The notes beneath the pieces are model-generated. The model was not told the origin of the DNA. It saw only the letters and a list, made by a program, of their open reading frames with translations, and did no database searches. DNA of 34,952 nucleotides from Candidatus Altimarinota bacterium (GTDB lineage Bacteria; Patescibacteriota; Gracilibacteria; BD1-5; UBA2023): contig SSGK01000012.1 of NCBI GenBank assembly GCA_008015855.1, forward strand, positions 1 to 34,952, read 5' to 3'. Positions 2,403-28,205 of the stretch are shown here, piece by piece. Position 1 is the stretch's first letter. Each line of letters opens with the position of its first letter. The position numbers and the translations under genes were made by a program.

Positions 2403-5400
2403 ATGGTTGAATTTGCTTATTCTCGAATTCAGAAAATACTATCATGAATTCTTATGTTTTTGATAGTATTTACTCAAACCTTTCATGTTGTTTGGTTTCA
2501 ATGAGTATCAGCTTATGCTTCTGACTATCGTGATATAGTTTCGATTTTTGTCGACAAAGAAACGTATGATGAATTTTCTTCTCAAATTCGTTGATATGCT
2601 CGTAATATTCAATCCTACCTATGATCCACACGGGTGGTAATATTTCCAGTTCAAGAAACCATTTCACCCTTTGCTATTGCATCACTTAATGAGAAACTGT
2701 ATTATGAATGAGATGGGGATGGGATTTCTCGCCTGGTTGGAACGATTCTTATTTGAAACATTCCACTTCCTGTGGTTCATAGAGAAGGGAAGACTTTCGT
2801 AAGTGTTTTCCCGTATACCGATTTTACAGATAAGAGCTTTTTATTTAATTCAGAAAAAGGATATTATGAATACTCTAATCAGTATAGGGAAACTTCAGAT
2901 GCTGATATTTGGCATTGAGTTATAAATCCAAATACAGGAAATAAATCAACAGATTCAACCGCATTACAAACCTTTTTTGATAAATCCGAAGACTTTTATG
3001 CTCAATCTGGAAAATACTCTGATGCAAATACCCTCGATGATCCTTATGTATTCTATTATGATGGATACCACGAACAGCTTGCTACCAAATTGAATGGATG
3101 GAAGTCGTATGAGCTTTACATGAAGCATCAAGAGGATATTTCATATAAACGTTGGAATAAAGATCTTGCCAATCAGATTACAAAAGAACAAGGGAATGTT
3201 GGAACAGAGGAAATGTGAGATATGGTTGATGGAATTGTTTCCCAACTTGAACAAACAGCTTCTTGATCTGATCAATTAGAAAGTGCTCTTGAAATTCAAG
3301 ATGCTTTTAATAGTTGAGGTTTGATGGAAAAGCAAGAGAATCAAATGAATAATGTTCCCGACATTAAATCAAAGGAAATTATTCAAAATCTTGCCAAGCC
3401 ATTTCATGAGATTATTAATTCTCAAACCATAGGGACTGAGTTAAAAAATGTGCATAATGCAGGAAGATATACTTCTGGTACAACCGTTCGTGCCGATATA
3501 GTTCCTCTTATGGTGACAAAACAAGATGAGATAATGAATAGAATATTGAAAGATGCAAATGGAGTTTTGGAATCTTTTACTGACAATCTTGTTGTGACAT
3601 GAGGATTATCAAGAAAAATTCCTGTGCTTACTCAGATTCAATTTGATCGTCAAGAATTTACTCATTGGTTGTATGGATATCAGCCAATGGATCCGCCTTT
3701 TGTTGAATTAAAGACTACAGCAAATTATCAGTGAAATAATATTGCAAACTACCAGGGGTATTATATAGGTGCTGATCATACTGGGAGTTACATATATAAA
3801 AATTATTTTTTCTGAAAGGAGGGATCCGATATAGTTAGTACGACCGGGTGTACTATATTGCGATGAAGTTCTCGTCTCGTTGAGGCAAATAGAGCATACA
3901 ATACACTTTTAGCTTTATCTGATGTTACTTTATTGCAAGATGATACCCAAGCACTTGCATGAGTAAATGGTATTCGTGATGCCTGTTTTCAACCAAATTC
4001 AAATGGTGCTGATATACGCACAATGACATATTGGGGATGAAATACTCCTCTTAACATAGATAATGCAAAAACAGCAGAAACGGGTTATATGGAGTTATGA
4101 GATCATAGATATGATTCTTTTGTTCGTCCGATTCTTGATATTGCCTGAATGCGTCAGGTTGATTCAGGATCATCGCTCATGGATACATATCATAACTCAC
4201 CAGCACGTTGTCTTGCTCACGATGATCTTATTTTACAACCAAGGACAAAACAGATATGTAATAATTGGTTTTGGGATTCGTGATGTACTCCACCATATTG
4301 ATCAGTAGCTGATAGTTCTTGGGATGAATGGAATAAATGAAGTTCATTTAATAAAAGACTTGCAATTAATGCGGATGATCTAAGATTTTCATGTTCCTCA
4401 ACGGTTAATAAAAAGACATCAAATTCATTTGAAGAATACTACCAGACTATCCCAACAGCAACCTGTACTGTTGGGAATTTGAGGCTTGATAATAGTCTCG
4501 TGCTTTCCGGTTCAAATCCATGTATTCAATATATATACTCGGGTTCTGAAAATGGAGGGTATCAAATTATATCAACCTTTGATCCTGTTACAAAGAAGCC
4601 TATAACACCAATGGATCCACTTCTTTGAATTTTTTATGATTACTATAGGATAGATGATTCACGATATTTAAATATTGATTACAAGTCAATCCAGTCGGCA
4701 ATGTTTCATAAGTCCCCAACGGATGAAGAATTATCAGTAGCTGAAGCTACTCAAATGACACCATGACTTGCTATTGATCGCGATAGGTATGTTTCATTTA
4801 TTAGTGCTGCTTGAAATGAGCAGAAAATAGTATATCCAAACCTTTTTCGTATTGAATTGACTGACGAAGAAATTGTGGATATCGAAAAGGCAAGACTAGC
4901 AATCAAGAAGTTCTTAGATATATCAAGCACTGAGGTAAATGCCTTGATTGCAAGTGAGATTCCTCCAACCTCAGGCATTGCAAAAGATATCTATAATCTT
5001 TTTAAAAATGGCGCATATCCAACACAGAATATTGATTATTATGCTGTTCTTGAAAAAGATCCACAAGTTCTAAAAACTGTTATTCAAAACGTTATTTGGA
5101 ATAATTTGAAAAATGCGACTGCAAAGTACTCATTCATCTTTGAGCATTATATTGATGAAAAAGGGAAGGATAAAACGCTCTTGCCACTTCATAGAACGGA
5201 TTATGAAATAAGCTATATGGGATGACTTGGGAACGCTCAATGAATGAGAGTTCTCCTTGATCCAGAATGAACGGAAGAAGTAATTCCGCCATATATTGCC
5301 GATATTATGAAGGCATATGATACTGGAATTAATGCAATTGATGCTGCAAATGTTACAGAAGATACCTATAATGATAATGGAAATAAAACAGATGACCAAT

Positions 5401-8400
5401 GTGGGTCGCCTGATGGAGTAAATATTTTCTTTGAATGGTTTCCGGCTATTATATGTTGGATTCAAACACTCCTTCCTCCTAAAATTCTTGCCGGATCTTG
5501 TACACCATCTACGATTGGTCAAGATTCAAATAATGATACTACGAATCGTGTAACTCCTCCTACCATTACAGGTACATGATATCAATGAACTCTCGCTGAT
5601 TTTTTCAATGGTGGTAGTATGAAAGTAGTATTTGATAAGAATACTATTAATACAAATGATACCGTTACTATAACATCATTTTTTGAAACATCTTCTGGTT
5701 CCATCGTTGATTTTGATAATACGTATGATGTTGTTGGAACTATTACGAAGATTGAAGCGTATAAGGAAGATGGTTCTTTCGGTGTGGTATATCAGAGCGG
5801 CATGGATCAATCTATTCTCCGAAAATATGTCAGCACCGAATCGGTACTAACTTCTTGATTTACCAATGGAGAAGCTCAATTTTATATTGGAAGTCGATCA
5901 GAGGATGCAAATATCACATTTCAAACAGCAGTAAGAAGATATGATCCTGAGTGAAATCCTCTCCTTGATGTTACCAGTAGTCCAACAATATTTAAGATTC
6001 GAGCTGGTAATATTAATGTAACGGTTCAGAGTGGATCTGAAGTCGTTTCAAGTGTTCCAGTTCAATCGAATCCAAATCTTTCACTCGTTTTTGATGCAAT
6101 ATCTGCGAGCGGAGCAAGAAAAGAATCAGTATTTCCTTATACATATTCATTTATTGATGATGTTTCAGAAGAAATTATAGCAACAGGAACCGTAAGTGAA
6201 GATATTGTTCCATTTCCAACATCCATCTTTTCTCGTATTGGTGTTTATAAAATTGAGGTACAAGATGGTCGTTGAGTCTACGGTGTTTCTAGTTTTTCAG
6301 TGAATCCTTGAGAACTTCATGAGATTCGTGTAGCAGCATCTTCCAATTATCTGGTTCAATGAGAAAATACACCCGTTGTTATTCAACTCATAGATGCGTA
6401 TGGTAATCTTACTTCTGGAGAATTGTATGATCTTGAGATCTCGGTAACCAATGGGTATATAGATGATTGAGAGGGGGAAAGAGATACGGTAACTCGTTCC
6501 ATTTTAGATGGAGCACTTGTTATTAATGTTGGAACAAAAAATTCATGATCAGCAATTGTAAGTGTTCGAGAAAAAAATTCAGGAAAGACATGACAATCGA
6601 GTATACAATCTATTCCATTTGCAAAGTGAAAGATTACTCTCGGGAGTACTCCAATTGCAGGATGAACTGGTGTAACCGTAGCTATTACAGTGGTTGATCA
6701 AAATAATCAAAAAATATCATGATTTAATGGGGTAGCATTATTTGATTTCCCTGGGTCATCTGGGTTATTTTCTGGAAGTACGGTACAGATTATAAATTGA
6801 GAAGCATCTACACGATTCCTTCCTGGAACAGTGGCTTCAAGTGGTATACAGCCTCAAGTGCAAATTCCTGGAATTAAAAATATAGAAGTTCCTTCGATTG
6901 TAATTGAACCAAACGATCCAATGTATATTGAGATGCGTACCACTGGAAATGAGGCTTTTGAGGCAAAACAGTGAAATACCTATGAAGTAGTTGCATCATT
7001 ACGAGATAGATATGGAAATAAAGTAATATCTCCAAGAAATAATGCCCAGGTTTCATTCCTTATACCTGATGATTATGCTCGTTATCTCCGATTTGAAAAT
7101 GGGTCAACGGGTCAGGTTGTTCCATTATGAGCAAGCTGAACTGCTCGTGCTACTATTGTTTCGACTGGTATTCCGGGGACTTCCTATATTTTAGGTGAGG
7201 TTACTCCAGGACTTACCTCTGATATACAAGTCACTGATGGTAATGAAACAACCATTATATCGGCACTCTCAAATGCAGTGATTCGATTGCAAACCTATTA
7301 TGTCTTTAATAAAGAGAAGGTTGATAGAATTGATTATAATTCTCTCTATACGGTTCTATTATGAGCTCCCTATTGAGATACAACCATTGAACAATATCTT
7401 GGATGAGAATTGCTTTTTAGTGAATGATCTCGTTGATTGGCAGTTACAACTCTTTCCGATGATCCATATATTCGTGAGACAGTTTGATCATTTCATCCAA
7501 ATGGTGGCTTTAAATGACAACTCAGCACATCTCCTGAAGTTTCCGTAACAGCTCATACAGAGATGACGAATAATGGAATTTCCGTTGTATTCTATGATGA
7601 AACATACAAGGAAAATATTGCAAGAATTACTCCTCGTTTTCTTGGTACACCAAAAATGATTTCATGTGGATTCGCATCTGGAACAATTAAGGATGACTGT
7701 ACTCTTCCAGACGTATCGCATATAGCAATTCATTCACTTGATTCTTCTGTTGTTTCAAATGTAAATGGAAATGTGCTTACACTTTCTCAGAGTGGATCTG
7801 CGGATGTATTCCTTGCTATTGATTCTGGGGGAAGGGTAACGAAACATCCTCTTGTAAATCTTATTCTCGATGAATCTCATGAAACGAATGGTATGTATTT
7901 TCGTATTGAATTTTCATGAACACCAATAGCGGAACTTATTTATTCAACCATATGAGATGGATCTATTTATAGTCCAGATACAGGTGCTACAACCGATGGA
8001 ATTATAGTAGAAGAAACATCTTCTCGCTATACAACAAGGCATGCATTCAATGGGGCAACTACGAAAGATTCAAAGTGAGTTGAGATTTATAAAAAAGTCT
8101 CACCATTTGATAAACCAGAAATTGACGATGTTTTTTCTCGACCAGGTGCTCTTGCATGAGTTGAGCAATTTACCGGAAATGAATGACTTGGATGGAAAGG
8201 AATGAACAAGATGCTCCTCTCATTTACGTCTGGTGATACTACCGGGGAAGCTTCTAAGTTCTTTGCAAGCTATCTTACTATTAACCTCTGAGATCCAGTT
8301 GTTCATATTGATCCAAAGAAGGTTATAAAACACAACCTTGATAGAACCATTGGAAAAACCATTCTTATGGAGACACGATGAGTTATTACTGGATATAAAG

Positions 8401-11400
8401 TTTTTGATGTAAATAATGATGAATGGGAAGATATTGTGGTATTTTATAATGATGGTCATATACAGCTTATCATGAATATGTCATGAAAATGGCGTGATAT
8501 GGGATATATTGCGTATGTTTCTGATGTAAAAGATGGTTTAAAATGAGTATGAGATTTTAGTGGTGATGGATATGAAGATATCGTTGTAACTGATCAGAAA
8601 GGAAAATTGATATTGCTTGATAATCAAGAGGGGCGTTTTACGAGAAAGAGTGTGAGTTATAATGAAAATGGAGTGACACAGACTCTTTCTGGAAGGTTAA
8701 TCCAGTTAGAAGTTTTCAATATGGATAACGACAAAAATGGAGCTCATGATATTGATGATCTTGTTGTTATGACCGAAGAATGACAGATATCGATACTCTA
8801 TTGATGAATAACCGTTTGAACAAAAACATCAAAGGAGTTTACAAGAAAAATAATAGAAGAAAATTTAGGAATATCTCTTGATACTAATGTTCGACACGAT
8901 GGATGAGCTGTTTATTTTAATGAGCTTGTTATTCCTGATTCATTTAAAAACACAAATACAACAACATCTGGAACATGACTTGATACAATAACTGATGGTG
9001 CAATACTCTCCCATGTATATTATGAACGATCAGTAGACTACTATAGTGATGCAAATTTAAGTGACTATTCGTATCTTGCTTCGGATGTAAGTAGTACCGA
9101 TGGATACTGAAATCCAGTTGATATTTGATCAGATGTTGGAAATCTTTTATCATGAATACCTGATTATGCTCGCTGATCCCAATCGGGAGATGGAATGCTT
9201 TCTTCTGTATCAGGGGATTCAAATGAAAACCCTGAAAGCAGAATATATATACGATCTGAATTTTCTGAAAGTGCGAATATTCTTGTTTCAAAACGATTTG
9301 AGCCGACTGGAGATACAAACTCATTGAAATCGGACGATATCGTAAAAATGGTTGTGACTATTGAAAATCAAGGAGCAGTAAATGCAACAAACTTTGAGTA
9401 TCTCGATGATATACCTGATAATTTTATACTCAATCAAGAAAAGCCATATACATTACTCTATAATAATACTGGTTCTGAAATTTGATGAGTTTGAAGTGAT
9501 ATTGCGATTGATGATTCTTATTTTGATGTTGCTGTTCCTATTGGCTCTCTTCCTGCTGGATCAAAGGTAATGCTTACATATTATGTTAATGTCCTTCCTT
9601 TTGTCTTTGGAAAGATGATTGTAGGACTACTTGAGAAGTGAGAAGTAGGAGACGATGTTTGGGGTGATATTGCATTTGATACAAAGAATCGTTCTGAATG
9701 TGATCGTGATATTCTTATGTGGCGATCTATTGCAAATCGTGAATATGAAAAATGATCAAAGAATTTCACGGATGATACCTATTCAACGCTTGCCCCAGAA
9801 ATTCAAGATGAAATGCTTCGAAATTCAACCGATGAGAATGGGAATGGTATTCCTGATTATGTTGATGCTGGAAGAGAAGATCCAAGTACGCTGCTCGAAT
9901 ATCAAAATGATGCAAAAGAGAAATTTGATGAAGTACAGGCTCAAGAAGCAGCAATTAGTACAATATCACCATTATTGACCTATAATCCTAATACTTGAGC
10001 AAGCACTTCGTCACCATCAGGAAGTGATATAGCTCAAATTGAGCAATCTATTGATACTTTGATGCGATGAATATCATGTTGATTTGGATGAGGTGGGTGT
10101 TTAAATATGCCAGTCAATTGGGCTCCGCTTGCTCCTGGAAGTGCACCAAATGTACTTGGGTTTCCAATGGGAGATATGTCAGCTGATACGTGACTTCCTA
10201 TTTTCTCGATGCTTACTGGATTACAAATGACATGTTGATATGTTCCTTGTTGTATACCGGTTGTTTGGCCTGTGTCGCCTTTAGCGTATGTTCCTGGTCC
10301 AACATGTTGAACTCCATCTGCATGATGATATCTTGGAACTTGGTCACCGCAAAACACGCTTCGAATCTTTGTAACACCAACCCTTACTATGTGAGCAGGA
10401 GTTGCCGTTTGTTTCGGTGGTCCTGCGATGCAAGCAAATGTTACAACTCCATTGTGGCCACTCCCTCCAACGGCATGATGTGTTGTAGCTGCTGCATCTC
10501 TTCCATTTTGTAAGGAAGATGGTTCTGACGGGGATGCTGAATGAGTGAGTTGAGTAGGTACTTTTACTGATACATGGAATGCTGGAAGTCAAACAAGCTG
10601 TGATGTAGTCGCAAATCCTGCTACTTCAACGGAGAAACAGGAAGTTATTACTGAAGTGAATGAGTATATTCGTACGGGTAATAAAGATAATCTTCAGAGG
10701 TTATACGTACAAAATAGAAATAATGCCTCTTTCCTTAATCAACTTTCTTCTCGTCCATTGATCTCTATGGGAAATTCATCAAATGGAGATGTTTCCATTG
10801 ATTTAGAGATAGATCCAAAGGCTGCAAATATAGGCGATGTAGTGAAGATTAAAAATATTCGAGTTCCAGCATTTCCAGAATTTATTATGGATTGGGTAAA
10901 TAGGCAAGTAGAGGAGATTATTAATAAGCTTACAATTCTCCCAACTCTTTACATTATACTCCCTGATGTATCGAGAATGTCTCTTGATGGAAATCTTGAT
11001 GGATTTACTGATAAGATGTCCGGATTTATTAGTTGAGCTAAGAATTCTGTAGGTAGTTTTGGGGATAGATTTTCTAATTCTTTGAATGGATCAAATCGAA
11101 AATACAATAGCATAGGATGAACGGCTGTGTGACTCCGTTCTGCATATGAATTCATGAATAAACTCCCATTTATTCGTGTACGTACTGCGAATATTCCAAT
11201 CAATATTCCTTGGATTGATGGAGCTCAACTTGAAAAAGAAATCGCAAAACTTTCATCTCAAATTGATGCGTATAAAAAAGAAATAGATTCTAAAACAAAA
11301 TCTTGGGAATGAATTGGTGCTGATAATCTTCGTGCTGGAACGAGTAAATTTATCTCGTCTCTTGAAAAAAATCTTCGTACACTTGAGGATTACAAGAAAT

Positions 11401-14400
11401 TTCCAGAAAAACTCCAGAAGCTTCTTACTTGGAAACAACGATATATTGAACAAATTGTATGTAATATTCGAACGATTGAAAAAATGCTTGGCGGATGGTT
11501 GAAAGATAATGCAAAGCGTTTCAAGAAGTGGGTAGAATTCATCATTATTATTAAGTCAATCCTCAAGGGGTGGCAAGCAATTATCGATTTGTTTTCTGGA
11601 TATCAGCAATCATGTGCGGTATGTAAGAATGAACGATATGATCTTCGTACATGGAAGGTTCGACTTCTTTCCATGCTTATACCAAAGATTCCTGTTATTA
11701 AATTTCCTCGATGGCCTGATATTGTCTTAGATTTACATAATATTCGCCTTGGTCTTGATATCGTCATGCCGGAATTTACTATTAAGCCAGTGCCAATTAT
11801 TTTACCGAATTTGCCAAAGCTTTTCCTTCCTGATGCGCCAAATGCGCTCATTAATATTCCAGCTATACCGACGCTTCCAGCCCTTCCAAATCTTCCAAAT
11901 CTTCCGGATCTTCCATCGCTTCCTCGTATTGAGCTTCCAAATCTTCCTCCACCACCAAAGATTCCAAATCTCTTTGGAGGAATAGCAGGAGTTCTCGATA
12001 TATTAAAACTCCTTATCAAGGTAGTGTGTTATATGCAAAATACACCACTTGTTCCAGAATGATATGCTGGTGAGAGAATTGCACAACTTACTCAAAGACA
12101 AGGAAAAAACCCTCTCGACTTCCTCAATCTTGATATGGCATCTATGGCCGATCTTCAGATTCCTGGTATGAAAGAAATACGGGTAAGTACGTATTTAAAC
12201 CTTGAATTAAAGACCGATTTTATTGCAGAGGCTGCTCGACAGATTGTTCGTCCAATTAATGAGTTTGGTGCAGACATGCGATGACTTCTTCCAAAAGAAG
12301 TAGGGACGACTGTTGATATGCGAAACACGGTTCCAAAGAATATTCGCTTGAATTATAATTCAGAAACATTGAAAAAATGAGATGCAACACTCTTTGGAAT
12401 TATTTGAGATAAGGATTTAGGAGAATCAGATATTGAAGAATTCAAGAAGATTTTTATTTCGGAAGTGAACAAGATAGAGAATCCATTTGTAAGAAAGCAA
12501 TTTCTTGATATCTATTCTGAAATGATTCATCCTGAGATGGGAGATGCAAATGAATTCATTGCTTCTCTTGAAAAAGATCAGAAAGAAAGATTCCAGGAAA
12601 TTTATGATTATCTTGATTCCGAACAGAAGGAAGTTCAGAATTTTGAAAATGAATTGAATCGACTTATAAAGAATTATAGTAATTCGGATCTTCTCTCTCG
12701 TTTCTCTCCAAGCACATCAGTACAAATGGCTGAGAGTTCTCAATCGAATAATGCAATAAATCCGTATATCGAGAAGATTAATGCTCGTTCCGAATGAGTA
12801 TTTGATGCTCTTTATCAAGGTAAAAAAGATTCATATGTATCCGCACTGGAAACAGAAGGTACTATATTGAGTAATAAATTACGTTCCATGAGGCTTGCTG
12901 TAAATGATGGAATAAACACTTCTTCTGAATACAATCCAATGAAATCATGAGATACTTCTGTACCAACCTCTGTATATCAAGGAGTGTATGCGATTGATAG
13001 TGGTTGAAATCGAGTATGGCTATTTGATTATTTTGATGAATTAAATGGGGAAGAAGAGATTATACGTGTTGATTATGATAATGATGGAGATAGAGACTAT
13101 CTTTACATGAATGGGAATGGAATATTCTTGAAAGAAAATCATGAATTTACTCCTCATAAAAATCGTGATACGGCTGTTCAAGAGATTTCAAGCATCTCTC
13201 TTGAGGATGAATTACTTTCTCCTGCACCGAATTATTTTCATGAAGCAATTACCACGCCGAATAGTATTAATGTTACGTTTGCCCCTATTCGGAAAGAGCT
13301 TGATGATTACTTCCGATTGGAGTATTACAACAGAATTTATGAATTCGATCTCAATACCTCTATTCCACAAAACTCTTCTTCATGAAGACATGTGGTTGAT
13401 TTAACACCTGTTTTACCACAGAGTGATGGTGATAGAGAGCTCCTTTCTTGAGCAATAGTAATGAAAAATAGGGCATATGTTGATAATATGGTCTGAGATG
13501 TTTTAATATTTGGTCCAAAACTTATTAAAAAATCTTCAAATGATAGCGCATTTGGAGTTTCTGTATGAAGAGATGTATATGTATGAAACTCATCAGCCAC
13601 CATCTCTTATCGCAATAAAAATACTGATACTTGGAATGAAGTTACCCTCCCAAAAAATATACGAATTCGATTCCAATCTGCCATGGAGGTTCGAGTAGAG
13701 TCGGGAATACTTTATATTAACAATGGTATAAATTCAGATACTCCAATGAGTATATATGAATATGAGAAATGATTCCCTATTTTACCGGATATGAAGATTG
13801 TTCCGGCTCCAGGTACGAATGCTCGTGTTGATATTTATGCTAATGGGGTAATGGATAGCGTATTTGGCTGACAGGATTATCGTATGATTAATCTCTGAAC
13901 AAAGAGTTCTTATTATTCGGTTGCATTTGATGAAGAAAATGCATGGTACCATGCTCGAATGTCTACTATTTATCCAGAGGGACGAACATCAAACGTTGCT
14001 CTCACTCTTATGTCTCCTCAATTTGAGTCAGACAATGAGCCTCCATTCTTTGATATGGATAGAACACTCTATGTTCCTGTGTATACCAGTAAAACCTTGG
14101 AACTTCTTGACCTTATTCAGGATACATCTGGCTTATCCGAAATACAAATGGATATTGATGTATCATCGGATGCAAATGGAAATGGAATTGTAGATGATGA
14201 TTTTGTGTCGTTATCTGATCCGAGTCTATCATCCATTCCACTTTCTCTTGTCTCAAATAGTGATTTTGTTGTAAAACTTTGAATCTTTGAAAAATTATGA
14301 ATTCACCAGGTTCGAATCAAAGCAGTCGATAACAATAATAATAGCTCAGAAATGAATGTCTCAATTATTGTTTACGCTCCAATTCCAACTATTGAATGAA

Positions 14401-15071
14401 CAGAGAATAATACGCTCTCTGGTTATCTTGATGAAACCGTTTATGGTGAACCAGTTGATATCGTTCGTGTGAGAGATGGAAATACTTCAATTGTGAAGCC
14501 AGCAACTCCACAAAAATATGATGCTGTTATATCACTTACAGGATGATTCTTTACGGGATCATATAATTCAAATATTCTGACAGCTTCCGGACAGGTTTCT
14601 ATTAAGGATGGAGAAAATGAGGCATGAATTGTTCGGGAGGATACTTGAAAGATTCAAAGCTCTCGTTCAATTGATGTAATTCCTGCGACAGCTGATGCTC
14701 CAATGCAATTAAAAATGGATAATGTGTACTATCAAAATATTATACTGAATCCAAAAACAACCAAGTTCTACTCTACTTCAGATTTTGGAAGAGTTTCTGA
14801 TGAGGGTGTATACATTAAGATGGAAAATCCAGCATACTCATATATTCAAAATCCACTCACTTCACTTCTTTTACCAGGAGGAATAAGTGTTATATCATGA
14901 AATGAATTTATATTTGGAATTGCGACAGATGGAAACATCTATACAAATGCGACAAATATAACATTTGAATACACTTCTTTAGGAAATTATATTATCATCA
15001 AGGCAAAACAAAACACTGATACTATTGCTGAAATTTTCTATAAGATACAAGGTATATTTGTTGCCCGCTAG
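2403..15071 (+). CDS. Giant (4,222 aa) secreted or membrane-associated multi-domain adhesin-like protein. It has an N-terminal signal peptide, tandem Ig-like (Big-type) domains, FG-GAP/integrin-like and TSP3-like Ca-binding motifs, and a CARDB/DUF11-like domain. It also carries a central Cys/Gly/Pro-rich hydrophobic module, a coiled-coil, a CxxC and an LPxLP proline tract. Read with UGA=Gly.
   Basis: I walked phase 3 from ATG 2403 to TAG 15069-15071, codon by codon across every gap between the listed fragments and relying on the track for the fragments themselves. It contains no TAA or TAG, only TGA. All 12 large + strand fragments in the supplied track (3321, 4857, 5619, 7563, 9195, 9813, 10656, 11484, 12465, 13107, 13959, 14703) are in this same phase. 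The N-terminus MVEFAYSRIQKILSGILMFLIVFTQTFHVVWFQGVSAYA/SDY looks like a signal peptide. FG-GAP-like motifs are FDVNNDEWEDIVVFYNDG (8403-), GDFSGDGYEDIVVTDQKGKLILLDN (8550-), MDNDKNGAHDIDDLVVM (8721-) and VDYDNDGDRDYLYMNGNG (13068-). TSP3-like motifs are DENGNGIPDYVD (9831-9866) and DANGNGIVDDD (14169-14201). Confidence 0.85.
11874..11951 (+). repeat. Imperfect 9-bp (3-codon) tandem repeat CTTCCAAAT inside the giant ORF, encoding (L-P-x)n.
   Basis: The units are cttccagcc, cttccaaat, cttccaaat, cttccggat, cttccatcg, cttcctcgt, [attgag], cttccaaat, cttcctcca. They translate as LPALPNLPNLPDLPSLPRIELPNLPP. Confidence 0.8.
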
Positions 15072-15189: not shown

Positions 15190-16593
15190 ATGCTTCCAAG
15201 AGTTACTATAGTAGGACGTCCAAATGTTGGGAAATCAAGCCTTTTTAATATGCTCACGAGGCATAAGATTGCAATTGTCTCTGATATTGAAAATACAACG
15301 AGAGATATTATTGAGTATGAGGTATATGATCAAGATAACCATATGTCATATATTCTTTGTGATAGCGGTTGATTGGTAGTGGGTACACAAGAAAGCATTC
15401 TTGATGATGTTCGAAGTCGTGTAGATGATGCTATTGAATCATCTGACATTATTCTTTTCGTAATGGAATATAATAAGATTACGGAACTGGATGAGGTAAT
15501 TGCTAAGAAACTTCGAAAGAGTCGTAAGCCTATTATTCTTGTGGGAAATAAGGCTGATAATATGAATCGAGCCCTTGAATCATATGAACTTTTGTCTCTC
15601 GGATTTGGTGATGTTATTCCAACAAGTCCTGTGCAGCATAGAGGGATACAAGACTTACGAAATGCTCTTACTGTTGAATTGAAGGCAATTGGTTTTACTG
15701 AGACAGAAGAGAATCCAATGAAGGATAATTCTAAGCTTCACTTGGCAATTATTGGACGTCCAAATGTTGGAAAATCATCACTCGTAAATGCTCTTTCTGG
15801 AACCATGCGTTCTATCGTTAAGGATTTACCAGGGACAACCAGAGATTCCATTGATACCGTTATTGACTGGAATGGGGAAGAGATATGCCTCATCGATACT
15901 GCTGGTATTCGTCGTGCTGGAAAGATTTGAACTGCAAATATTGAACAATGGAGTGTTCTCCGTGCTGAGCGCGCAATTAGTCGATCTGATGTTGTTGCCG
16001 TTGTTATGGATGCTTTTGAATGAGTATCTCATCAAGATCAGATTATTGTATGAAAGGCTCTTGAAGAAAAGAAGGGAATTATTCTTGTGATGAATAAATG
16101 GGATAAGGTTCTTTCAAAACCAGGAGTAAATACGGAAACTATTTTGGATAGATATATGACGTATTTATCGAAGAAGTTCGATTTTCTTTCGTATGTTCCT
16201 GTTATATTTACTTCTGCGATTGATGGGAAGAGAATTGATCGTGTTTTTGAAAATGCGCTTCTTATTCGAAATGAGCGAAATAAGAGAGTGAAAACGGGGG
16301 TATTTAATAAATTTCTTGCACAAATTACTTATGAACATGCTCCAACGGGGAATAGAAAATCACATAAACCAAAGGTATATTACGGATCACAGGTAGATGT
16401 GAATCCACCGAAATTTGTTATTTCCGTAAATAACTCAGATCACTTCCACTTTTCTTATTCACGTTATATCGAGAATAAGATTCGAGAATTCTTTTCTTTT
16501 GAAGGAACTCCTATTATTGTTGAATTAAAGAGTCGTAAGAGTATTTATAAAAACAATGACAAGGATAGAAATAATGATGAATCAGATGAATAA
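15190..16593 (+). CDS. der: Ribosome-associated GTPase Der/EngA (two tandem GTPase domains plus a KH-like C-terminus).
   Basis: Domain 1 has G1 [10 protein letters not shown]3 D-S-G-G (15361-15372, the last Gly being TGA) and NKAD. Domain 2 has [16 protein letters not shown] and NKWD. Three track fragments (15190, 15373, 16087) share phase 1 and are joined by TGA. The stop is TAA 16591-16593. Confidence 0.95.
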
Positions 16594-17587
16594 GAAGTCT
16601 CTTTGGATATACTGTGCTATTGGTATCGTATATATTTTATTGAATGGTTGGCTCTCGGGAATACCTTCAATGCTTCAAATGTTGTTGCGTTCAATTATTC
16701 TCATTGCATTCCTCCTTTCTCCTTATTTCTTTTATACAACTCTTTTTCCATGAAAATGAGGGGTAAGAAGATTTATATCTCTGGCTATTCCTCTCTATTT
16801 TATAGGATTATTTTTAGAAATACTCCTTTTTATCATACTAATGGGGGTATCATATTATTATAATGCGCAATCTCCGGCAACAATGTCGCGTATTACACTT
16901 TCGAATTCCGAAAAGACGCTTATTTTTCAAGAGATGTCTCATATTGGAACAGAAAATTTTTATGCTTGTGCATGATCAGGGGTTTCAATGCTCTCAAATT
17001 CAGGATTTCAAGTATATTATGAAGGTGTTTGAAGTGGAACTGTTGAAAATATGAAGACCTTCCAGAAGATGCTTTGAATAGAATTTACCGATACTCTCTA
17101 TGAGAGTTTTGCTCAATCTATCTGAATGCGATCACAGAAATATGAATCGTTTATTCCATGAGAGATATTGCGTACGGCAAAAAATGTTGATATATGAATT
17201 GATACGATTGTTCAAATCGCAAATAGTAAGTACGGATCATGATTCTATAGGGAATCAGTTCCTCTTTCGATTGAATCGGATATTATAGGGTGAATATCTC
17301 AAATGACAGAAAATGAAAAGAGACTCTATTCCTATTTTATACGAGGTATCCTTAATATGATGGCTCATAATTCCCAAGAAATGTCGGTATTTTGAATGAA
17401 TCAGGAAATTATGGATGTAATACTTCATGAGAGAAATAAGGTAATTTCAGAGAAGATTCAAACATCCTCTGATAGGAAAATTATTGCTTTTTACGGTGCT
17501 CTTCATTTCAATGGAATATTCGAGGAACTAAAAAAACGTGATATTCGTTGGAAGGTGCTTCAGATAGAAAATTGTTATCCTTATTAA
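16586..17587 (+). CDS. Membrane protein with about 3 N-terminal TM helices and a soluble domain weakly resembling the TraB/GumN/Tiki (GxxH) superfamily. Function unknown.
   Basis: Phase 2 is open from 16556 to TAA 17585-17587 with TGA as sense. Hydrophobic segments are SLWIYCAIGIVYILLNGWLSGI, LLRSIILIAFLLSPYFFYTTLF and FISLAIPLYFIGLFLEILLFIILMGVSYYY. Candidate family motifs are LIFQEMSHIG and AFYGALHFNG. The start is uncertain (ATG at 16556, 16574, 16577 or 16586). I chose 16586, which gives MNKKS.. and an ATGAATAA overlap with the der stop. Confidence 0.6.
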
Positions 17588-17621
17588 AATACTCTTTTCA
17601 AGTTAAAACATGAAAGAGATT

Positions 17622-17650
17622 TTGATTTAAGCCTTGTTCATTTATAATAT
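17622..17650 (+). promoter_or_regulatory. Candidate promoter upstream of ftsH.
   Basis: TTGATT (17622-17627) is followed by TATAAT (17643-17648) after a 15-nt spacer, or by TAATAT (17645-17650) after a 17-nt spacer. This lies about 40 nt upstream of ATG 17690. Pattern match only. Confidence 0.3.
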
Positions 17651-17689
17651 ACACTACTTTTTTAATTTTAATTTAAATCTATTTTTCAG

Positions 17690-19634
<1,945 letters not shown>

Positions 19635-19636
<2 letters not shown>

Positions 19637-20766: not shown

Positions 20767-23700
20767 ATGAAAAAAATATTTCAGTACTTTCTTGTTTTTA
20801 TTTGATTTATATCTGTAATTACATTAGGGGTGTATGCTCTTGATGTTCAGTCAAAGACGCTTACAACCGTTGTATCAGACGGTTATTATAGGGAAGGAAG
20901 CTCTTGGCGTTTTATAGTTTCTGAACCAAGACCATTTCTTGGGATTATTCCAGTTCAGGTAACAAAGAATTGTACTGATTTAAAGGATGTTGCATGTGCA
21001 TTACTCGATATTGATGCTATTCAAAAGAGTATAAAAATCAATTGACTTATTCAGAAGGAGCTCCCTAAGGGGATATCTGCTTCCCTTACGAATACCTATA
21101 CATTTATTTTGAATATTTTCCCTGAAGCAAATATTCGTGATGGTGATGAAATTCATGTAGATGTTGGAATTTATAACTCTCTTCAGAAAACAGGATACAA
21201 ATTAGCCCAAGATATAATTCTTGTGTACCGTAAAAATGATCCGATTCTTACAATTGATTCCATTTGAATACCGAAAAACAAAGAATATAGAGTAGTTGCT
21301 GAAGGTTTTCGTTCAACCAATATCCTTACAACGATAGATTTTTACACTCTACAAAGAAATGACCTTGGCCAGTGTAGTTTGGAATCTTCCAGGGATTTTC
21401 AGAATGCTTCTTTTGAAGTAACCGAGGCATTAAATGAAGGAATGAAATCAACTGCATACATTAAGATTCAATCACCAATTCAATATAATGCAGAATGTCT
21501 ATTTGCTTCAATAAATGGTGAAATGGCATTGGTGGAGAATATGACGATACCCGAGTTTACTGTATCTTGAGAGGTGTGAGTTCAGCTCTCCCCAGAACTT
21601 GATATGAAAACAGAGGTGACATTTTCATTCTCATCCCCCTTATTTATCGAGAGTGGTTCGGTAAATTCAGAAGAATTTATTGATAATCGAACGAAGGCAA
21701 AAGTTGAATTTTTGAAGCATCTTTCAATTTCTTCTTGAATTGAAGCAAAGATAGATGATTTGGTATTATATCCTAAGAAGGCAATACTTCTTTTACCACT
21801 TTTAGCTGATAAAAAATATTCATTTTCTCTTGATGAATTGGAAGATATATATGGTCAGATTACTTCTCTGGATTTTCCTGTGCAAGTAAAAAGAGAACCG
21901 TATCTTTCTGTAAAGACAAAAGAGCGATATCATACCTTCTCAAAACTGCAAAATCCTGAGTTCCAATTATATTCTTACTGAATAGGAACAGGATCTCAGG
22001 AGATTTCTGTTTGTCGAGTTTCTTTGGATAACTTTTCTCGTTTGGAACAGATATATGATGTTGGGAAGAAGGGTGATTCATGAATACTCTACAGTATTCT
22101 TTCTTCATCTTGATCAGGGGTATATGGTTGTGAAAAAACAATTCTTTCTATTCCAGAAGGAAGTTATTCATATAAATTCACGCTTCAAGATGTTCTAAAA
22201 AAGAAGGAAGTTGGTCAATATGTTCTCTTCTTTAGTAAGATCGAGGATATTACAAAGGCTCAAAACTTTGTAAAACCTATTCTATTCTCCATTTTAGATA
22301 CGAATATTGTCATGAAAGTATCACAAGAAGGTGATTCACTCTTTCTTGTAACGGATATCTATACCTGAAAACCGATGAAGGATCAGGAGATAATGGTATA
22401 TCAAAATATATCTCGTTCCGTTGAGAGAACGTGGAATTCTCAAAAAGGAATGTATGATCTAAAATATATTCCACTTGCGGAAAAAAGATTTTCGACATGA
22501 GTTTATATCTGAAAAACCAATAATGAAGGGTTTCTTCAGGTGAATCTAAAAAATTATATAAAAGATGGTGATCCATATAGTTTAACATTTGAAGATTGGT
22601 GGGGATCTCAAGAAGATGGATCATATCGTTCATTTGTGGCCGTTGTTCGATCTGACTCTCATTTTTGATTTGTAGTAAGTACCTGGAATGATGGAATCGC
22701 TCCTTGGAATTTTTGATTTGATACATCGGACACTCGTTATTATTATGGATCACTCCAGCGTTATAATGCATATATACATACAGATAGAATGCTGTATCTT
22801 CCTGGTGAAGAGGTATACATCCATGGAATATTGCGTGAAAATAATGGAAAATTAGTGGTTCCAAAGAATAAGAATTATACCGTTACGGTTACTGATTCAT
22901 TCTGAAAAACCCTTTCTTCTCAGGCTGTTCAGATAAATGAATTTGGAAGTTTCTCTGTAAAATCTTCATTACCAAAGGAGGCTGATATGGGAACTTATAC
23001 CGTTCAGCTGATTGGTGAAACTCCTGATACTTCTTATATTCCAGGGGGATATACTAACTTTCAGGTGGAAATTTTTAAAAATCCAACATTTCAAATTACG
23101 GTTGATGCTGAGTGAGTTGAACTCGATAATGGGATTATAACTGTTAAGAAAGAGGCAAATAAAGATGTTTCAAATTGGTGGTATGAGTCTGTTTACAATG
23201 GTGCATTTACTCTCAACGCAAAAGTGCTTGCACGATACTATAATGGAGCAATATTAAAGAATGCCAATTTTTCATATAAGATTTTAAGAAAAGAGTATTG
23301 GGGTGATAATTATTGGGCGGAATGTTTCTGGTGATGTTATTACGAATGAAATACAGAATTTTATACCGAATGAGTTTGAAGACTTGATGGGGATGGCTAT
23401 GGAATAATACGAACTCCTGTAGATTTTACTTCGTTTTATGCAGACTATAAATATATTATCGAGGTAACGGTAGTTGATCCACTTACCGGCGAGACTATTA
23501 CGAGCGCCTGAAATCTTATTGTAAAACTTCCCGCTGAAATAAAGGAATACAATCCAGCGAGTATTGCAAATGTTGTTCCTGATAGGAAATTTATTTCAGC
23601 TTGAGATGTATTTCGTGCTTGAATACGATTTAATGATACCCCATGGAAGCTTGGCTATAACAATAAATATGAATATAAGATTGTTGCAAAGCAGTATACA

Positions 23701-26700
23701 AATCGAATCATTCAGGATGTTCGATGAGTTTCTCGTTCTGTTTTAAAAGAAGAGGATACTGTTATTTCTTCTGGTGTTCTTACTTCAACTGGAAGATTAC
23801 TTACCCAATCAGGCATTCTTATTTTTACTGGTAAATATCAAAATTCAGGGGAGTATAATCTGGTTATTCAACCGATTTGATATTCTGGATCTGATGAAAC
23901 AAGAATATCTCGCACAGCCTTTTACGTGTATGGAACCGGAAATGCAAAAAATCCTATTATTGATGATAATAAGATACATGTATTTACCGAAAAGCCAGTA
24001 TATAAGCTCGGAGAAACATGAAAGATTCTTGTTCGACTTCCATTTAATCAAGGGAAGATATTGCTTACAACTGAGAAATGAGGGGTTATTGATAAAAAAT
24101 ATATCGATGTTACATCCAATCTCTTTATTCATGAATTTCAGGTTGATGAATCATATTTCCCAAATGCATACATAAGTGTTGTTGCTTTAGAGACTATTTC
24201 AAATTGAGATTCAAAAACAATTACAAGAAATCCAACCTATAGAGTAGGTTATGCTGAAGTGGTGGTTGATCAATCAGAGAAACTTGGAACTATTGCGATA
24301 TCTCCGGATAAAAATGATTATAAGGTAGGGGAAAATGTTAATATATCTCTTGCTCTCAAGAATAAAAAGTGAGAGGGGATAAAAGGAGAATTTGCTGTTA
24401 TGGTGATTGATGATAGTCTTATCTCTCTTCTTGGTAATATTGACCTTGATATTTTGCCAAAGTTTTATCAAAAAGTTGGACTTTGAATCCATACCGCACT
24501 TTCACTCTTGTGAATGGAAGAGAACTTTTATTTTTCTCGTAAATGAATTGCTGGTGGAAGTGGAGGAAAATGATGAGATTGAATTGTTTCAACGAGAACA
24601 ATCTTTAAAAATACAGCATACTATAATCCATCTGTTATTACTGATGAGAAGTGATATGCAAAAGTAAATTTTACACTTCCAGATAATATAACAAACTACC
24701 GAATTATTGTTATTGCCAATACGAAGGATTCAACTTTTGCAGTTGGCGAAAAGATGATTCATGTTCGTAAGGATATTGTTGCCACAGCACATGCACCGTA
24801 TATTGTGAGAAATGGTGATAGATTTGTTGTATCTGCTTCTATTTTTAATAACACGAAGACCATTCAATCACTTATTGTTGCCTTTGAAGCAAATCCTCTT
24901 GATATACAAGGATCGAATGAGCAGAAAATAACTCTCGAACCTGGAAAGACATTATCAGTAGATTTTCCAGCATCAGTAGATAAAAAATCAAAGGCAGTAA
25001 AACTTTCATATGTCATTCGAGTGAAAAATATGAGCTGAATAACCCTTGATGCCATTGAACAAAAAATTGATTATGTACTTGATCCAATTCTTATAGAGCG
25101 TTATCAGCAAAACATCATTCTTACAGGATCTAAAATCATTCCTATTCCACTTGATAAATCGAATGTAAATGAGAATCAGAGTACATTTTCGCTTCGAATA
25201 AGTCCAACATTTCTCCCTTCCATGGAAGATGTTCTTCAATCACTCAAAATGTACCCATATGGTTGTATAGAACAAACGACTTCTTCAACTTTGCCGAATG
25301 CACTTCTTCTCGCAGTATCGAATCTCATAGATACGACAAAATTTTCACCTGAGGATTTAAGAGCAAATGTGGCAGCATGAGTTAAAAGAATTGCATGAAT
25401 GCAAACAGATATTGGTGGATTTTCATATTGGCCAGGAGATACTGTTACAAACTCTCAAATAACTCCTTATGTAGTAAGAAGTCTTATTGCCATGAGTGAA
25501 TTGTGAGCCGATGTTCCAAGAGAAATAATTGACCGCTCTATGAGTTATTTGGAGTCGAATATTTCTGCATATGCTGATAATAATGAAAAGGCAGAACTTT
25601 TTTGGACACTTGCACGAGCGAAAAATAATAAGGCAAAAGTGGTAGCGGATTCGATTGATTCAAATACACTTACGCTTCATTCCTTGTTAGCTTATACATA
25701 TGGAATGCACTATCTCGATCAACAAAAAATTATAAAATTTGATATTCGTTTGATTGATAGAATCCGTGCAGAATTAAAGAAAACAAAACAAAGTGAGTAT
25801 AATTGGTATTATTGGGATCTTCTTGCTGATAAAGCTCTTTTTGCAAGTCTTCTTATAGATAGAACGGGCTATTTTAATGAGGCAGAAGGGATACTTCGTG
25901 AACTTGCGAAAAATGATTGGGATAGTTACTATTATTCGACACAAACGAAGTATCAGGTGTTCCTCGCGTTTTTTAAACACGCACAGAAGATAAAGCAACT
26001 TCCAACCACTGAGGTAACCGTGAAGTATGGTGCATATCAGTGAGTGCTTACTATTTGAGGAAATAAATTGGTACATTCTCTTGAGGTTCCATTTGCTGAT
26101 ATTGGAAATGAATTAAATTTTTCATTTCGATCACAGTATCCAATATATGCAAATATTACCCATTCTCTTTATCCAGCTGACCCATATGCTATTACCAAGA
26201 AGGATAATGGTGTTAAGATTTCCCGTACTCTCTTCTCGGTTGATGAGGAAGCATGAGTGTTTGTGAGTGGAGAAGGGACATATAATCAAGAAATTCAATA
26301 CCTTCATGTTACCCCTGTAAATGATAAGGTGATTCATAAGTGAAAACTTTATAAAGTGGTTATCGAGGCGAATATTCCAACAAAGAAGGATATGAACTGG
26401 ACAAATTTTGTTCTTGAAGATTTCTTTCCTGGTTGATTCCGACCAATTAATAAGGTATTTCATTCCGCAGATTCTCTTCTTGGTGCGACTTCCAATATGT
26501 TCTATTCTACCCAAAATAAAATAGATAGAATACTCGCACATGCTCCTTGGTGATATGGTGATAGCGTGCACTATGAGTATTATTTCCGTCCAGAGTTTGA
26601 AGGAAATTTTATATGGCCTCCTGCTACTGGTTATTTCATGTATAATCCATCTATTATGTGATTTACAGAGTATGAATCACTGACAGTAAAAAAGAATTAG
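20767..26700 (+). CDS. Bacterial alpha-2-macroglobulin family thioester protein (1,977 aa) with an N-terminal signal or anchor.
   Basis: Phase 1 is open from ATG 20767 to TAG 26698-26700 with TGA as sense. The thioester motif MYPYGCIEQT places CIEQ at 25264-25275. MG-domain signatures seen are STWNDGIAPWNF, HTDRMLYLPGEEVYIHGI, INEFGSFSVKSSLPKEADMGTYTV, FQVEIFKNPTF and TAYYNPSVITDEKGYAKVNFTLPDNITNYRIIVIA. The N-terminus MKKIFQYFLVFIGFISVITLGVYA/LD has no lipobox Cys. Confidence 0.9.
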
Positions 26701-26760: not shown

Positions 26761-27207
26761 ATGAAATGTCCAAAGTGTAAAAATCTTGATACAAAGGTAA
26801 TTGATTCTCGTATGACAGAGGATTGAAAGGCAGTAAGAAGAAGACGAGAATGTGAAAAATGCTGAGCTCGTTTTACAACATTTGAACGACTTGAATTCGT
26901 TTCATTTATGGTTACTAAGTCTTCTGGTGAATCGGAACAATATGATCGGACGAAGGTAGTAAATTCTATGATGAAGGCATTGGTAAAGAGAAAATTCAAT
27001 CCAGATAAGATAGAGCAGATAATAAATACCCTTGAAACTGATTGGGCTCAAAACAAACAAGGGATCACTTCAAAGCGAATTGGACGTGATATTCTGCGAA
27101 AGCTTCGAGACTTGGATGAAGTTGCCTTTCTTCGGTATGCATCAATCTATCATAACCATGAAAATGTAGCAGAATTTATTAAATTTCTTGAGGAAGAATT
27201 GTGATAA
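26761..27207 (+). CDS. nrdR: Transcriptional repressor NrdR (zinc ribbon plus ATP-cone).
   Basis: The protein begins [46 protein letters not shown], followed by an ATP-cone-like C-terminal half. Under code 25 the ORF reads through TGA 27202-27204 to TAA 27205-27207. Confidence 0.93.
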
Positions 27208-28205
27208 AACAATCGTCGGATACATTACATCAAACAATCACTATTATTAATCTCTCTAATACAAAACTTCAGGGTGATTATATTTCATATGAGCTTCTGC
27301 AAACCATTACCCAAACAATTGAAAAATGATGAAAGGTTCTCCTTTTTTTCAATAGAAGAGGGGAATATAGGAGCATCTCATGTCCTGATTGTTCGAACCG
27401 ATTATTATGCCCCTATTGTAATATCCCTCTTTCCTATCATTCATTTCCCTCTAAGAAGTGTATTTGTCACCAGTGTAACTATATAGAGCCCTTTCATCCG
27501 ACGTGTAAAAAGTGTGGATCCAATACAATGATTTTCTCTTGAGTTGGTATTCAGAAAATTGAGGAAATTCTTGTTCGTCATTTTCCATGAAAATCTATTC
27601 TCCGAGTAGATTCAGATGCTCTGATACATGATTCTCAGTTACTAAGCTCTATTGATTCTTCTGATATTATTCTCGGAACAACCCTTGCCACCTCCCTTAT
27701 TCATAAGGATATTCAATTGGTTGCAAGTCTTCTCTTTGAAAGTGAATTCTCTATTCCTGAATATACCATAGAAGAAGATGTTTATATACGCGCAAATTTT
27801 TATATTCGACAAGGGATTCCATTTTTTATTCAAACTTTTATACCATCGCATCCCTTATTGGATATGATACTTAATGGAAACTATAAGGAGTATATGAAGT
27901 ATTTAATGAATGAAAGAAAGAGCTTCTGATATCCTCCATTTTGAAAACTTCTTTATATTTGGGTGAAAGATTCAAAAAAAGAGAAGGTCCAAGATATTAT
28001 TTATAAACTCGCCAACAAGCTCGATATTCTTCAGACTGAACATAACTTCTCTCTCTTCTTTTCGTATGATAAGGATATATGGGATCGATATATGGATGAG
28101 TGGCGACAGAAAATTGTTATTAAATGACCTGATGCTGAAAAAATGCTTACTTTTTTCCACTCAGAAATTATTAAAAATCGAAATGTCTTTCTGGAACGAA
28201 AATAA
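27201..28205 (+). CDS. priA: PriA-like protein comprising only the C-terminal half of PriA: helicase lobe 2 remnant, Cys-rich zinc region and C-terminal domain (334 aa). The N-terminal DNA-binding domains and the Walker A/B lobe are absent.
   Basis: VLLFFNRRGEYRSISCPDCSNRLLCPYCNIPLSYHSFPSKKCICHQCNYIEPFHPTCKKCGS matches the PriA CRR. It continues GVGIQKIEEILVRHFP, RVDSD and IILGTTLA. Phase 3 opens only after TAA 27180-27182 and the first usable start is GTG 27201, which overlaps the nrdR end. The stop is TAA 28203-28205. The helicase motif V/VI positions are degenerate (GTTLATSLIHKD; FYIRQG in place of QVAGRAGR). Confidence 0.75.

Follow-up and report, generated by a model that had tools for sequence, protein, structure and literature searches.

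Gracilibacteria, Absconditabacteria and Peregrinibacteria lack the capacity to synthesise most of their building blocks, and their cultured members feed on other bacteria. Giant surface proteins have already been reported in this clade. In Vampirococcus lugosii (Absconditabacteria) the longest proteins, described with DUF11 and integrin domains, are putatively located in the membrane or at the surface; the largest, VAMP_16_20, has 4,163 amino acids (aa), and a role in host recognition and attachment was proposed (PMC8080830). Candidatus Peribacter riflensis carries large extracellular, partly Cys-rich proteins of 1,219-3,861 aa for which attachment was proposed and in which strains differ (PMC4736985). 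In groundwater Gracilibacteria, a VCBS-repeat protein has been detected in a metaproteome; the supplement gives neither its sequence nor its length, and it is not tied to the family described here (PMC11452946). Giant open reading frames (ORFs) also occur in the small, putatively predatory Omnitrophota, again with a proposed surface or attack role (bioRxiv 10.1101/2023.11.21.568195). Here we describe a gene of 12,669 nucleotides (positions 2403-15071, + strand) on contig SSGK01000012.1, a 34,952-nucleotide stretch of DNA (the window) whose source organism is a Candidatus Gracilibacteria-type bacterium within the candidate phyla radiation (CPR). The encoded protein of 4,222 aa belongs to an unnamed family of 4-6-kaa (thousand-amino-acid) proteins, which sequence comparison shows to be collinear end to end across Gracilibacteria and Peregrinibacteria/Peribacteria-type lineages, and its central module (aa ~2550-3300) is the most conserved part of that family.

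The Vampirococcus giant proteins come from the same code-25 CPR clade, are of near-equal length and are described with DUF11 and integrin-type domains (PMC8080830), and the 4,163-aa protein, compared by description only, is probably an ortholog. However, the Vampirococcus paper neither analyses the family nor gives a description of the central module (PMC8080830). The Peribacter riflensis proteins, likened by description, are also very large, exported and from a sister lineage, but they are described as very Cys-rich, whereas the present protein has 0.7% Cys with its conserved Cys clustered (PMC4736985). The Omnitrophota giants belong to another phylum, are ten to twenty times larger and use the standard code, and homology to them is not expected. 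As an object the ORF is not new, being already in public collections. In the literature searched, we did not find the family-wide collinearity, the conserved charge-free centre as the most constrained part, or the association with pilus genes in particular lineages.

A coding frame in a genome of 35% GC is expected to lose GC toward the third codon position, and the giant ORF indeed falls from 47% GC at position 1 to 22% at position 3. It runs from ATG to TAG over 4,222 codons with no TAA, a terminal TAG only, and 115 in-frame TGA codons. Frame 3 of the + strand is open between a TAG at 2268 and the TAG at 15069-15071, and its first ATG, at 2403, is equivalent to the start of an ortholog that is 50% identical. 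In the remaining five frames the identical stretch holds 64-208 TAA or TAG codons each, and the probability that 4,222 codons would lack both by base composition is ~1e-100. Under code 11 the longest piece of the ORF is 249 aa; long ORFs appear in the whole window only when TGA is read as sense, with lengths of 4,266, 1,993 and 694 aa among others. Three further full-length copies (Logan and ENA assemblies, in the 90% cluster of P0001) are 99.0-99.7% identical and align over the 4,222 residues without a gap, and the 50%-identical ortholog, on a 91.6-kb contig of a Gracilibacteria metagenome-assembled genome (MAG) and retranslated with code 25, matches from the first to the last residue. The first-pass annotation of this DNA had proposed a single 12.7-kb ORF for a 4,222-aa giant surface protein, invisible under the standard code. 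The single ORF is borne out by the code-25 reading; its invisibility is true of the sequence, but both the ORF and its family have already been called in public databases.

If TGA encodes glycine, TGA codons are expected to align with glycine in homologs as ordinary glycine codons do. Residue statistics were drawn from an alignment with 43 homologs, all correctly translated. At the 115 TGA positions of the giant ORF, 40.4% of the aligned homolog residues are Gly, compared with 39.8% at GGN positions in the same alignment and a background of 7.0%. TGG positions align with Trp at 38.5%, and Trp is outside the top five residues at TGA positions. TGA also stands at the two glycines of the FtsH Walker A motif (GPPGTGKT) and at glycines that are conserved in UvrC (IDGGKGQ), TsaD (LAGGVSAN) and Der (DSGG). 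In the giant ORF, TGA is thus translated as Gly (code 25) rather than acting as a stop, since its columns match homolog Gly just as GGN columns do. The public copy of the ORF, P0001, has Trp where the code-25 translation has Gly at each of the 115 TGA codons and differs from it nowhere else; it is therefore a code-4 translation. Most stored homologs (P0001, P0002 and P0007-P0091) are likewise code-4 translations, with Trp at 2-7% and Gly down to 0.5%. Trp stored in place of Gly at each TGA degrades homology searches and structure predictions made on the public copies.

These results bear on whether the frame could be an artefact, that is, an assembly chimera, a pseudogene, several genes split by TGA stops, or a frame in which TGA is Trp. 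The sole point for such a reading is that code 11 interrupts the frame 115 times. Set against it are the length of the open frame, which chance would hardly provide, the alignment of TGA with Gly exactly like GGN and its place on invariant glycines of housekeeping proteins, the gapless agreement of the assemblies, and ~90 full-length homologs. An artefact is thereby already refuted by the sequence data, and we give it practically no weight. No frameshift was seen, and since three independent assemblies carry the ORF gapless, it is not a chimera. Within the reach of sequence evidence, chimeric, frameshifted and multi-gene readings are excluded, which leaves one intact gene.

A full-length search returned ~90 clusters of 3.9-4.5-kaa proteins at 25-32% identity, whose named members are 'hypothetical' or 'VCBS repeat-containing' proteins of Candidatus Gracilibacteria. 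The same search also recovered 4-5.9-kaa proteins of Peregrinibacteria or the 'Patescibacteria group' with SLH, Big_1, Invasin_D3, Glyco_hydro2_C5 and TSP3_bac domains. BLAST matches to these distant relatives follow the same order (N-terminal domain, middle, centre, core and C-terminal part), and an alignment of 44 sequences shows conserved blocks over the whole length. Present protein and family agree in signal peptide, N-terminal domain, Ig array, FG-GAP region, the place of a DUF11-like domain (marginal in the present protein), charge-poor centre, core and C-terminal region. The Peregrinibacteria-type members differ in having SLH domains, significant TSP3_bac matches and a type IV pilus neighbourhood, all of which the present protein lacks. 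NCBI names for family members of 3.9-5.9 kaa are 'VCBS repeat-containing protein', 'S-layer homology domain-containing protein' and 'DUF11 domain-containing protein'. Family members occur as one giant gene per long contig. P0002 is 47-50% identical over its full length, and the fast-diverging segments between close relatives are aa 1100-1200, 1800-1900 and 3400-3500, at 25-33% identity. The strong selection that the first-pass annotation had proposed is supported, since conservation extends over the full length in ~90 Gracilibacteria clusters and in Peregrinibacteria-type relatives, and homologous long ORFs are indeed found in related genomes.

Giant adhesins of the LapA/SiiE/Bap/RTX type are built of many near-identical tandem repeats, often with type I secretion signals. 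The present protein resembles them in being very large and exported, in carrying Ig-like and Ca-binding modules, and in a role at the surface. In contrast to them, it shows no internal repeats at E<=0.01 when compared with itself by BLAST. The only DNA tandem repeat found in the 12.7-kb ORF by Tandem Repeats Finder is a 9-bp microrepeat, CTTCCAAAT x 3.7 (window 11883-11915), which encodes LPN repeats inside a conserved proline-rich run.

The central module stands out within this family. Among representatives at 50% clustering, a profile of it (A2, aa 2545-3300) matched 739 with E<=1e-3, of which 373 reached E<=1e-30, and nearly every one of its top 150 matches is a 3.5-6-kaa protein or a fragment of one. 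When species-representative genomes were scanned with the core, using a single-protein query, four Gracilibacteria MAGs and one Peribacteria MAG were recovered. The module contains a charge-poor, Gly/Pro/Cys-rich hydrophobic segment (10068-10508, +; aa 2556-2702; nucleotide = 2403 + 3(aa-1) throughout) that contains 22 G, 21 P and 8 C and only 3 charged residues. Within aa 2556-2675, 3 of 120 residues are charged, compared with a mean of 13.4 and a minimum of 8 in shuffled sequences, and nearly all of the 43 homologs have their least charged 120-residue window at the same relative place in the protein. The hydrophobic centre of the earlier description is thus confirmed, and it is conserved in position. 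Conserved residues in or near this segment are C2559, C2566, P2570, N2572, R2654, P2659, T2660, C2670, C2693 and C2733.

The most conserved core follows (10854-12272, +; aa 2818-3290) and shares 64-85% identity with the ortholog whose identity over the whole protein is 50%. Its elements are an FP..W..Q..E helix, long helices, C3071-x-x-C3074, an FP(K/R)WPD motif (FPRWPD here), a Pro-rich run, amphipathic helices and C3209. One helix of ~92 residues is predicted to be continuous and to end at the CxxC (11343-11618, +; aa ~2981-3072), in a low-confidence model with local predicted local distance difference test (pLDDT) scores of 64-81. The proline-rich LPxLPxLP...LPPPPxIP segment (11796-11972, +; aa 3132-3190) holds the tandem repeat described above. 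Transmembrane helices were considered for the hydrophobicity peaks at aa 3046-3064 and 3187-3212 and rejected as ordinary membrane spans, because both are amphipathic, with Lys, Asp or Glu present in all lineages. Searches of Pfam, NCBIfam, PHROG and PDB sequences, and a fold search, gave no match for aa ~2550-3300. An AlphaFold2 model of the module from an 18-sequence alignment reached a mean pLDDT of 52.9 and a predicted template modelling score of 0.31 and is unusable for fold assignment; its target was the public Trp version, with 18 wrong residues that may have lowered confidence. Foldseek comparison of this model with the PDB gave noise only.

The N-terminus carries a Sec-type signal peptide (2403-2519, +; aa 1-39) with a basic K11, a hydrophobic stretch at residues 12-24 and family-conserved Pro and A-x-A. 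Lys or Arg is found at residue 11 in 39 of 39 homologs, Pro 30 in 30 of 43, Ala 35 in 26 of 41 and Ala 37 in 34 of 42. The signal peptide had been noted before with a cleavage site at AYA/SD; the peptide is present and conserved, but that site lies two residues past the A-x-A site of the family. An N-terminal membrane anchor in place of a cleaved signal was rejected as the main reading, because the conserved Pro and A-x-A favour cleavage.

Behind the signal lies a conserved N-terminal domain (2520-3902, +; aa 40-500), whose invariant residues are L111, G113, G118, P123, P137, Y138, W170, K194, Y236, R250, R355, D375 and C483. AlphaFold2 gave it a mean pLDDT of 60.9, and only the first ~170 residues, modelled as an alternating beta/alpha fold, are confident (pLDDT 70-92). 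Foldseek returned weak matches to gingipain R/K (1cvr, E 0.15, probability 0.98; 6i9a, E 0.42) and nothing at E<0.1, and the domain has no Pfam match (including C25) and no PDB sequence match. A clan CD/Peptidase C25 (gingipain-like) protease was rejected on the weak fold match and the absence of the catalytic His-Cys dyad, since some members have Gln or Ser at the position of H171, and C483 is the first conserved Cys. A profile search for the domain outside the present architecture recovered nothing but fragments of family members. A second conserved block (4650-5252, +; aa 750-950) is marked by H769, P772, D792, R795, Y811, W899, Y934 and E935 and has no Pfam match.

The first-pass annotation had further listed tandem Ig-like domains, FG-GAP repeats, a DUF11-like domain and TSP3-like Ca loops, and these fared unequally when the protein was searched against Pfam in ten overlapping tiles. 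The FG-GAP/VCBS region (8100-8882, +; aa ~1900-2160), with conserved D-x-x-x-D-x-x-x-D loops, is the firmest: FG-GAP_3 (PF13517) matches aa 2051-2110 (nt 8553-8732) at 28.9 bits, above the gathering cut-off of 26.9, and the same match is found in homologs. For the Ig-like (invasin/Big_1-type) array (6300-7322, +; aa ~1300-1640), in which a D-x-x-G/N-N motif recurs every ~100 aa, a conserved D-x-x-x-N about every 100-200 aa, and the pairs D1331/N1335 and D1535/N1539 are conserved, the Big_1 (PF02369) and Invasin_D3 (PF09134) profiles gave no match at E<=0.01 in the protein itself (tiles 3 and 4). In collinear homologs, however, the assignment is significant: aa 1300-2133 align (E 1e-32) with regions of P0094 and P0095 that match Invasin_D3 (1e-13), Glyco_hydro2_C5 (1e-23) and Big_1 (2e-12). 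The DUF11-like domain (9306-9593, +; aa 2302-2397) is marginal, with DUF11 (PF01345) at 19.4 bits, below the cut-off of 24.6, but the TIGR01451 DUF11-type repeat at the equivalent place in P0094 scores 26.6 against a cut-off of 24. Ca-loop motifs occur at aa 2108, 2477, 3557 and 3923, those at 2477 and 3923 being of the DxNGNGIxD type; the TSP3-like loops at aa 2477, 3557 and 3923 are visible as motifs only, and TSP3_bac (PF18884) gave no profile match in the protein, though it is significant in P0095. Beyond these modules, NCBIfam assigned the Gracilibacteria homolog P0003 to no family and matched P0094 at the level of domains alone (GalA-like, DUF11-type repeat and CglD), a PHROG search gave no match, and PDB sequence searches with a whole homolog, the core profile and the N-terminal profile gave nothing meaningful.

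The C-terminal extracellular region (12900-15068, +; aa 3500-4222) contains the Ca-loop motifs DYDNDGDRD (aa 3557) and DANGNGIVDD (aa 3923), and the equivalent region of P0095 carries SLH, TSP3_bac and FecR domains. It has no transmembrane helix and no hydrophobic tail. No LPxTG motif occurs anywhere in the protein, and SLH (PF00395) is absent from it and present in distant homologs. Relative to the centre, SLH lies N-terminal in P0094, C-terminal in P0095 and on both sides in P0105. Because SLH is found on either side, we infer an extracytoplasmic position for both flanks of the centre; the FG-GAP, Ig-like and TSP3_bac domains and the many invariant Cys point the same way. This agrees with the earlier suggestion of extracellular adhesin-type modules on both sides of a hydrophobic centre. 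A DsbA/thioredoxin-like exported protein is encoded in the window at 32494-33408 (+), and this fits disulfide formation in the giant protein's many conserved cysteines.

Downstream of the giant gene lie der (EngA), a gene for a TraB/PrgY-family membrane protein, and ftsH (15190-19636, +) in a conserved order, and no terminator-like site was found between the giant-gene stop and der. The order giant gene, der, traB-like gene, ftsH recurs in the 50%-identical locus and in one 31%-identical Gracilibacteria locus, giving three loci with the window; further Gracilibacteria loci have a different order. The gene between der and ftsH (16556-17587, +) encodes a TraB/PrgY/GumN-family membrane protein, and in two other Gracilibacteria loci the same slot is occupied by a similarly sized gene (324-329 aa) with no Pfam match on record. 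An alpha-2-macroglobulin (A2M) gene of 1,977 aa follows at 20767-26700 (+), with MG2, A2M_BRD, A2M, TED and bMG10 domains, a GCIEQ thioester-type motif and 47 in-frame TGA codons. In the closest relative (L006), the same A2M gene is again found downstream of the giant gene, and the Vampirococcus genome, too, has large A2M genes (PMC8080830). Directly after NrdR (26761-27207), an ORF at 27528-28205 (+) resembles only the C-terminal part (~225 aa) of a PriA-type helicase and may be a truncated or very reduced gene. Upstream of the giant gene, a partial ORF (1-2085, +) encodes at least 694 aa under code 25 with 26 TGA codons and no Pfam match. It contains the motif C-[IL]-N-[GN]-x-C-[ILV]-x-x-W four times (LCINNMCLADW, YCINGNCVASW, LCLNGNCISNW and ICINNSCLNSW) and is probably another secreted repeat protein. 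A terminator-like hairpin (2139-2175) follows it, and a tRNA-Lys(UUU) gene (2191-2266, -) lies between it and the giant gene.

A different neighbourhood is seen in three Peregrinibacteria-type loci (L009, 198-30327; L010, 3140-28715; and the P0100 locus), where genes for T2SSE (PilB-like), T2SSF (PilC-like) and a canonical prepilin (KGFTLIE) precede the giant gene. After it come four orthologous proteins with Sec signals, of ~200, 250-350, 600 and 355-400 aa. The window contains no homologs of these four proteins, and no pilus genes were found in its 35 kb or in the L006, L007 and L011 neighbourhoods. In a code-25 relative with a 1.0-Mb contig (L008), a pair of T4SS_pilin (PF18895) genes (27448-28187) is found ~7 kb downstream of the giant gene.

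On balance, and with modest confidence, we favour a device mounted in the cell envelope that would bind the surface of a host or prey cell through its adhesin-type modules. The cleavable Sec signal would export the whole chain. The N-terminal half would then form a stalk that comprises a novel alpha/beta domain, three or more Ig-like domains, the FG-GAP (integrin-like) region and a DUF11-like domain with Ca loops, and the C-terminal quarter would add further Ca loops and beta-rich domains. Between these two arms, as the most constrained part of the family, would lie a disulfide-rich, almost charge-free segment of 120-150 residues, long helices, the CxxC, the FPxWPD hairpin, the polyproline-like run and amphipathic helices. 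By domain analogy, the adhesin-type modules would bind the other cell, whether host or prey, and the hydrophobic centre would hold the chain in, or drive it into, a membrane or a hydrophobic assembly; that the centre engages a membrane or forms the core of an assembly is our guess. From the domain content and the literature on the clade, we infer contact with another cell (PMC8080830, PMC4736985), and a role in host or prey contact is plausible.

Several observations weigh against this assignment. Within the protein, FG-GAP_3 is the only domain to exceed a curated threshold, the two structure models are of low quality (mean pLDDT 52.9 and 60.9) with no significant match in fold searches, and no SLH, LPXTG or transmembrane anchor was found that would hold the protein on the cell. 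A host-specific adhesin should vary in architecture and copy number, but this one is collinear and occurs once per long contig, and in Gracilibacteria its gene sits among housekeeping genes (der and ftsH). A conserved mechanical or structural device fits at least as well as a host-specific adhesin, because the architecture is collinear and non-repetitive, the centre is maximally conserved without a known fold, and the neighbourhood is one of housekeeping genes. The protein might be a building part of the envelope of its own cell, for instance a scaffold or spacer tied to the S-layer or wall or a holder of sister cells, with the centre anchored in its own membrane, the arms reaching the wall or S-layer, and no host-specific role. 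The SLH domains of distant homologs, collinearity and single occurrence over a deep clade, the der/ftsH setting of the three Gracilibacteria loci, and a non-repetitive, evenly conserved sequence unlike fast-evolving adhesins would all be consistent with such a scaffold. We nevertheless regard it as rather unlikely, given that the present protein has no SLH domain, that FG-GAP, Ig-like and DUF11 domains are typical of ligand-binding surface proteins, and that the three fast-diverging segments evolve as expected of exposed recognition surfaces.

The pilus genes of the Peregrinibacteria-type loci, together with the four conserved Sec-signal proteins, raise another reading, in which the protein would be an accessory of a type IV filament, either a very large PilY1-like adhesin at its tip or base or cargo presented by the pilus machinery. 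PilY1 has a propeller, and the FG-GAP region with its Ca loops is loosely like it. Like integrin alpha and other FG-GAP (VCBS) proteins and the PilY1 propeller, the present protein has conserved Asp-rich Ca-type loops and an FG-GAP_3 match above cut-off; it differs from them in that FG-GAP makes up only ~6% of the chain and that no PilY1 domain was found. With no PilY1/PilC Pfam match, a Sec signal rather than a prepilin signal at the N-terminus, and neither pilus genes nor homologs of the four accessory proteins in the window (pilus genes being likewise absent near L006, L007 and L011), a filament accessory appears highly improbable. The contact device remains our preferred reading. A bolder version of it, which we put forward as decidedly unlikely, is that the central module is a new membrane-active device, which may insert into, fuse with or open the host envelope, would be carried by the adhesin arms and, in some lineages, would cooperate with type IV pili. 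If this were true, these non-biosynthetic bacteria would owe their access to the host cytoplasm to the central module.

The giant gene takes up 36% of the window, its family is kept full-length in the sampled genomes, and its best-conserved part matches nothing known. For these reasons, the protein is a concrete and testable candidate for the apparatus with which these bacteria contact other cells, or else for a core envelope structure peculiar to the clade.

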